Source: a virus (Duplodnaviria; Heunggongvirae; Uroviricota; Caudoviricetes). Taken from it: a DNA stretch of 64,000 bases. Made by a program: the position numbers and the translations under genes. Positions within the stretch are counted from its first letter, which is position 1; the number at the start of each line of letters is the position of its first letter. Shown here piece after piece: positions 22,142 to 22,157 of the stretch. Where the stretch lies: the IMG/VR virus record IMGVR_UViG_2565956708_000007; one strand, written 5' to 3'. Below the pieces are notes generated by a model, which saw nothing but the letters and a program-made list of their open reading frames with translations, did no database searches and had not been told where the DNA came from.

Positions 22142-22157
22142 TGACTAGCGGTAGAAT
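22142..22157 (+). promoter_or_regulatory. Putative late promoter (TGACT-N5-TAGAAT)
   Basis: caacaaaTGACTagcggTAGAAT 30 bp upstream of the 22187 start. Confidence 0.45.

Follow-up and report, generated by a model that had tools for sequence, protein, structure and literature searches.

The 64,000-nucleotide stretch of phage DNA that was analysed here (the window, at its full length) contains a short element of the form TGACT-N5-TA(G/A)AAT at positions 22142–22157, and further copies lie ahead of other structural operons. The question raised by this locus is whether the repeated element is a promoter with a function of its own, which regulator acts on it and how much of the late regulon it accounts for. 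The sequence-only reading had taken the element for a late promoter that depends on the activator Lpa. This was borne out by comparison with the P1 record AF234172, in which all four sites named in that reading match annotated late promoters, namely LP26, LP23 (entered as predicted), LPsit and LPpac, the last of which is adjoined by lpa. We conclude that the motif sites are very probably Lpa-dependent late promoters of a P1-like phage, and nothing was found that argues directly against this. The feature is the textbook late promoter of P1, whose annotation in the reference genome extends to single bases, and it is already known, as P1 late promoters were mapped decades ago. Since the motif is the late promoter already described for P1, its identification is a correct rediscovery with nothing new in it. 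The discovery value is therefore small, and the practical value lies in the annotation of P1-like phage-plasmids, which are often carriers of resistance genes.

Architecture and genomic setting of the late promoters

The window is of the P1-like phage-plasmid type, with mosaic replacements that interrupt the homology to P1. A blastn map showed that the region of P1 AF234172 from 94680 to 37153, when reverse-complemented, corresponds collinearly to the whole window, with 94–99% identity. The alignable fraction of window positions 1–24000 was 65% for P1 and 82% for RCS47, and the surroundings of the focal site were 98.8% identical to P1 and 99.9% identical to RCS47. The coordinates of the promoters, of the genes that follow them and of the blocks that are foreign to P1 are collected in Table 1. 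P1 homology restarts at 54464, 2 bp upstream of the −22 box of LPsit, so a mosaic junction abuts this promoter.

Table 1. Late promoters, downstream genes, candidate sites and related features (window coordinates unless an accession is given; arrows follow the direction of reading on the minus strand)
Feature	Position	Strand	Box	Spacer	−10	Remarks
LP26	22139-22157	+	AAATGACTA (22139-22147)	gcgg	TAGAAT (22152-22157)	AF234172 'late promoter LP26'
Gene 26 (baseplate)	start 22187	+				downstream of LP26
LPpmgL	22129-22147	-	TAGTCATTT (LP26 box read on this strand)		ATTATT (22134→22129)	divergent from LP26
pmgL	start near 22040	-
C1 operator O26 (former Op82)	22098-22114	+				ATTGCACTAATAATTTT; 25 bp 5′ of the LP26/LPpmgL box
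LP23	43123-43141	+	AAGTGACTT (perfect palindrome)	tcaa	TAAAAT	top matrix score, 30.6; P1 record has only 'predicted late promoter LP23'
Gene 23 (major capsid protein)	start 43193 (TTG)	+				downstream of LP23
LPsit	54466-54484	+	AAATGACTA	ctcg	TAGAAT	AF234172 'late promoter LPsit'
pmgC	start 54516	+				followed by tub, pmgB, sit, pmgA, bplA, 16
LPs	62726-62744	+	AAGTTACTT (perfect palindrome)	atct	TACAAT	matrix score 24.6; AF234172 'late promoter LPs'
Gene R	start 62775	+				downstream of LPs; followed by tail-fibre gene S
LPpac	4189-4207	-	ATGTGACTT (4207→4199)	tcgt	TACCCT (4194→4189)	matrix score 25.9; AF234172 'late promoter LPpac'
pacA	start 4152 (GTG)	-				downstream of LPpac
lpa	4239-4691	-				late promoter activator, 150 aa; Pfam PF25716 BPP1_LPA, E 2.3e-57
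Gene 7 internal candidate	23844-23862	+	AAGTGACTG	gtga	TAACCT	9+4+6 layout; 49 bp inside gene 7
ppfA/mlp candidate	37228-37251	+	ACAAAGGACTT (weak)	catt	GATAAT	matrix score 10.7
Non-P1 block (blastn vs P1)	7147-16097 (mostly)					~9 kb, from the lpa-doc side to pmgT, mostly foreign to P1
Non-P1 block (blastn vs P1)	29719-30814
Non-P1 block (blastn vs P1)	38392-40653
Non-P1 block (blastn vs P1)	48555-49744
Non-P1 block (blastn vs P1)	53422-54463					substitutes for the sim region
D6 box examples (MF356679)	25221-25241, 38115-38135, 54124-54144, 67393-67413		AAAT(C/A)ACA	N7	NANNNT

In the P1 record (AF234172/NC_005856), 11 late promoters are annotated (LPmat, LPpro, LPlyz, LPdar, LPs, LPsit, LP23, LP26, LPpmgL, LPhot and LPpac), and a 9-bp '-22 region' as well as a −10 is marked for every one of them. 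An alignment of these promoters, oriented as they are transcribed, reads ACAAGTGACTT-N4-TAnAAT. The −22 box has the consensus AAGTNACTT, a 9-bp imperfect inverted repeat with AC in front, in which T, A and T are invariant across the 11 P1 boxes, and its centre falls at about −22 relative to the start of transcription according to the P1 annotation. The motif had thus been written down in incomplete form: it corresponds to the right-hand part of the known element, TGACT is the best-conserved portion of the box, and the full element consists of the 9-bp box AAGTNACTT, 4 bp and the −10. This 9+4+6 layout, with exactly 4 bp between the box and TANNNT, is kept in all five main sites of the window (LP26, LP23, LPsit, LPs and LPpac), and the box of each resembles AAGTNACTT. 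The box that is common to LP26 and LPsit is a poor palindrome in which two of the four half-site pairs match, and it is imperfect in P1 as well, so symmetric recognition is not evident from these two promoters alone. The first genes of the operons (26, 23, pmgC, R and pacA) begin 29–51 bp downstream of the five main sites.

A search with the P1 promoter cores located six of the 11 P1 late promoters in the window, all at orthologous places. The cores of LP26, LP23, LPs and LPpac are identical to those of P1, and those of LPsit and LPpmgL are nearly so. LPsit differs at three positions, all of which are upstream of the box, where the sequence is non-P1. LPpmgL shares its box with LP26, and the same 9 bp are annotated in the P1 record as the −22 region of both promoters. 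Its −10 is ATTATT in the window and AATATT in P1 (one mismatch), and neither hexamer fits TANNNT, which makes LPpmgL the least convincing member of the set. Predicted sigma-70 promoters are also present in the divergent 26–pmgL control region of P1. The window promoters share with those of P1 the −22 box, the 4-bp spacer, TANNNT, the lack of a −35 element and the downstream genes; unlike P1, the window has only six of the 11. LPhot was absent, as neither a search with its P1 core that allowed up to four mismatches nor inspection of the sequence upstream of a hot-like ORF (7222–7473, minus strand) revealed a −22 box. This is explained by replacement of the region upstream of this theta-subunit-like hot gene by DNA that is non-homologous to P1 (7147–8146).

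The claim that four sites make up the late regulon of the window did not hold, as LPs and LPpmgL had been missed, the former because its box contains TTACT and the latter because it is paired divergently with LP26. Some of the positions given for the four also needed correction. The minus-strand site before pacA is present, but its string catgTGACTttcgtTACCCT runs from 4208 to 4189 rather than over 4197–4215, a shift of ∼8 bases, and the strings quoted at 54464 and 43120 exist but begin at 54463 and 43119, respectively.

The lack of a −35 element bears on a reading in which the sites are constitutive sigma-70 promoters, with TGACT as a displaced −35-like element or an extended −10, and with no phage activator involved. 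Five of the six TATAAT positions are matched by four of the −10 hexamers, TGACT resembles part of TTGACA, and sigma-70 promoters that overlap several of the late promoters, such as P2pmgL and 'P1 23', are predicted in the P1 record. However, only 5 bp separate the end of TGACT from the −10, instead of 16–18 bp. When a −35 hexamer was sought at spacings of 16–18 bp in the five main sites, only 0–2 of the six bases matched TTGACA. A TG extended −10 was found at none of the five annotated TANNNT promoters, and a sigma-70 consensus scan of the region around LP26 (21900–22300) returned no promoter. Judged from the sequence, the missing −35 combined with the missing extended −10 is a feature of activator-dependent promoters. 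In the literature, moreover, late expression requires both Lpa and SspA. We therefore regard constitutive sigma-70 promoters as a very improbable explanation of these sites.

The activator Lpa and its predicted recognition box

The gene for the presumed activator is directly upstream of LPpac, as it is in P1. In addition to its Pfam match (Table 1), the lpa ORF was assigned to PHROG 1704 'Lpa-like transcriptional activator' (E 5e-85), and its product shares 98% identity with proteins that bear the name 'Late promoter-activating protein'. According to the P1 record, lpa is under the control of a sigma-70 promoter that is regulated by C1. The passages of PMC1891329 that cite Hansen et al. 2003 describe Lpa as a sequence-specific DNA-binding activator that acts together with Escherichia coli SspA, and SspA as an RNA-polymerase-associated protein that does not itself bind to late-promoter DNA. 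Lysis, structural and packaging genes of the late class depend on Lpa (PMC8198154, PMC8201110).

These elements can be combined into a proposed sequence of events, in which occupation of the box by Lpa, the need for SspA and the transcription start sites are drawn from the literature or inferred. The late promoters alone would be poor promoters. Once C1 repression is relieved, the early gene lpa would be expressed, Lpa would occupy the −22 boxes, and SspA-bound sigma-70 RNA polymerase would initiate ∼7 nt downstream of each −10. The operons that would be switched on in this way are those for packaging (pacA-pacB), baseplate and tail (26-25-7-24-6-5), head and sheath (23-22-21 and following genes), tail tube and injection (pmgC-tub-pmgB-sit and following genes) and tail fibre (R-S-U).

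Phylogenetic footprinting was performed with two relatives from an annotated phage collection, Cronobacter phage JK004 and phage D6. Scans for Lpa in other collections were not useful for this purpose, as genome contigs yielded only two near-identical loci, and the 80 loci found in viral contigs encoded Lpa proteins that were 99–100% identical. In JK004, Lpa is 67% identical to that of the window, and the structural proteins are 68–86% identical. When this genome was scanned with the P1 matrix, eight of the nine top-scoring sites preceded, by 9–139 bp, the genes orthologous to 23, R, pacA, 26, mat, prt, lyz and pmgC, and the ninth was upstream of a ppfA/mlp homologue. LP23 and LPpac are thus among the promoters that are kept in JK004, ahead of the orthologues of gene 23 and pacA, respectively. 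Relative to the P1-type promoters, the box and the −10 are preserved, whereas the spacers and flanks have diverged. Conservation in this diverged relative was established in our analysis, as were the motif, its statistics and geometry, the absence of a −35, the P1 positions and the presence of lpa.

A different picture was obtained for D6 (MF356679), a distant relative of P1, in which Lpa is only 31% identical to that of the window. The P1 matrix found just one strong site in this genome. The D6 box instead conforms to AAAT(C/A)ACA-N7-NANNNT, with 11 hits compared with 0.43 expected, and has the form AAATCACA, compared with AAGTGACTT for the P1 type. The hits are located upstream of prt, lydA, R, pmgB, 23, 7, mat, ddrB, darB and others. 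The box is positioned at the same fixed distance upstream of a TANNNT-like −10 as in P1 and precedes operons of the head, tail, lysis and dar groups, and an lpa homologue is situated next to pacA. A literature search for a published late-promoter motif of D6 gave nothing relevant. The activator and its box appear to have changed together in D6. Preservation of the box alongside a similar Lpa in JK004 and its replacement alongside a diverged Lpa in D6 are expected if the box is the recognition site of the activator. The apparent concerted change in D6 is also a useful handle for late-promoter prediction in more distant P1-like plasmid prophages.

The same comparison bears on the possibility that the box is an operator of some other regulator, such as the C1 repressor or an unknown phage DNA-binding protein. 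Binding of Lpa to the box is predicted in the present phage, and O26 is situated 25 bp upstream of the LP26 box. C1 operators are, however, separate 17-bp features with another sequence, as O26 itself illustrates (Table 1), and the box differs where Lpa has diverged (D6) and is unchanged with the 67% identical Lpa of JK004. In the literature, the inverted repeat is ascribed to Lpa. Recognition by a regulator other than Lpa is accordingly a reading to which we assign hardly any weight, and the −22 box is best regarded as the predicted Lpa site.

Positive control of late genes from promoters that lack a normal −35 is also known for Mu C, P2 Ogr and T4 gp55/gp33. The sites of Mu C and Ogr are further upstream and overlap the −35 region, and T4 replaces sigma-70 altogether; P1 retains sigma-70, and its box is placed at −22, between the usual positions of the −35 and −10 elements. 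The MglA–SspA–PigR system of Francisella likewise comprises a DNA-bound activator that works through an SspA-family protein on RNA polymerase. It differs in its proteins, in its DNA element and in being chromosomal, so the resemblance is an analogy of mechanism only. P1 Lpa/SspA is cited as the precedent by the Francisella authors (PMC1891329).

Pattern counts and matrix searches

The 64-kb window contains exactly three matches to the strict pattern TGACT-N5-TARAAT (TGACTNNNNNTARAAT), at 22142–22157, 43126–43141 and 54469–54484, all on the plus strand. Expectations were computed from dinucleotide-preserving shuffles. For the strict pattern, 0.06 matches were expected, and none of 100 shuffles reached three, so the repetition of the motif at three plus-strand operons, as had been claimed, is real. 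The relaxed pattern TGACT-N5-TANNNT was matched five times (1.29 expected; one of 100 shuffles reached five), the two additional sites being the one before pacA and 23847–23862. The longer known consensus CAARTKACT-N5-TANNNT also had five matches in the window, compared with 0.02 expected. The motif scan that had been proposed as a check thus showed enrichment of both the strict and the extended patterns, and the five main sites are located directly upstream of late operons.

Two position-specific matrices were trained on sites from outside the window. The first was built from the four P1 late promoters that fall outside it (LPmat, LPpro, LPlyz and LPdar) and, among ∼128,000 window positions, gave ranks 1–3 to LPpac, LP23 and LPs, rank 5 to LP26 and rank 8 to LPsit. 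The second was built from 12 sites, eight from JK004 and the four from P1, and placed LP23, LPpac, LP26, LPs and LPsit at ranks 1–5, with scores from 30.6 to 19.8, although the test is not fully independent in evolutionary terms because the JK004 training sites are orthologues. Rank 6 was taken by a site within gene 7, and all six scores exceeded the 95th percentile of the shuffle maxima (18.0). A minus-strand site at 12121–12144, with TACCAA as its −10, scored 16.2, which is below this threshold, and the start of an ORF overlaps it. Three AAGTNACTT boxes that stand alone, at 47468, 50586 and 59642, were rejected as promoters: they are intragenic (kilA-repL region and sit), and no TANNNT is present at the right distance on either strand.

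The notion that the sites are chance matches of a short AT-rich intergenic pattern, with no common function, could draw on the modest enrichment of the relaxed pattern and on these isolated boxes, but it is already effectively refuted by the strict and extended counts, by the matrix test and by the retention of the sites at orthologous positions of JK004, where the flanks have diverged, and the sites coincide with annotated P1 promoters at close range to the first genes of operons. For annotation, a scan with AAGTNACTT-N4-TANNNT reliably transfers the late-operon structure to the window and to relatives with records that lack gene names, such as JK004.

Candidate additional late promoters

The rank 6 site inside gene 7 is also the fifth hit of the extended consensus. 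It exists in P1 as well, where it is unannotated, and its matrix score of 19.6 narrowly exceeds the 95th percentile of the maxima from the shuffles. At the orthologous position in JK004 the match is degraded (score 7.1), which makes the status of this candidate uncertain. In D6, gene 7 is located apart from 26-25 and is immediately preceded by a late-type box of its own, so a promoter at this point of the tail cluster is at least plausible. We consider it possible, though on balance doubtful, that the site is a genuine twelfth promoter of the Lpa-dependent kind, by which expression of the distal tail genes 24-6-5, or of an internal gp7 product, would be raised.

A second candidate is found upstream of ppfA/mlp, where the box of the window is weak. 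Its counterpart in JK004 (23653–23676, minus strand) scored much better, at 17.2, and in the P1 record only a predicted sigma-70 promoter is entered at this place. Based on these scores, the box upstream of ppfA/mlp may be another late promoter. If such additional sites are genuine, the late regulon of P1 would extend a little beyond the eleven canonical promoters.
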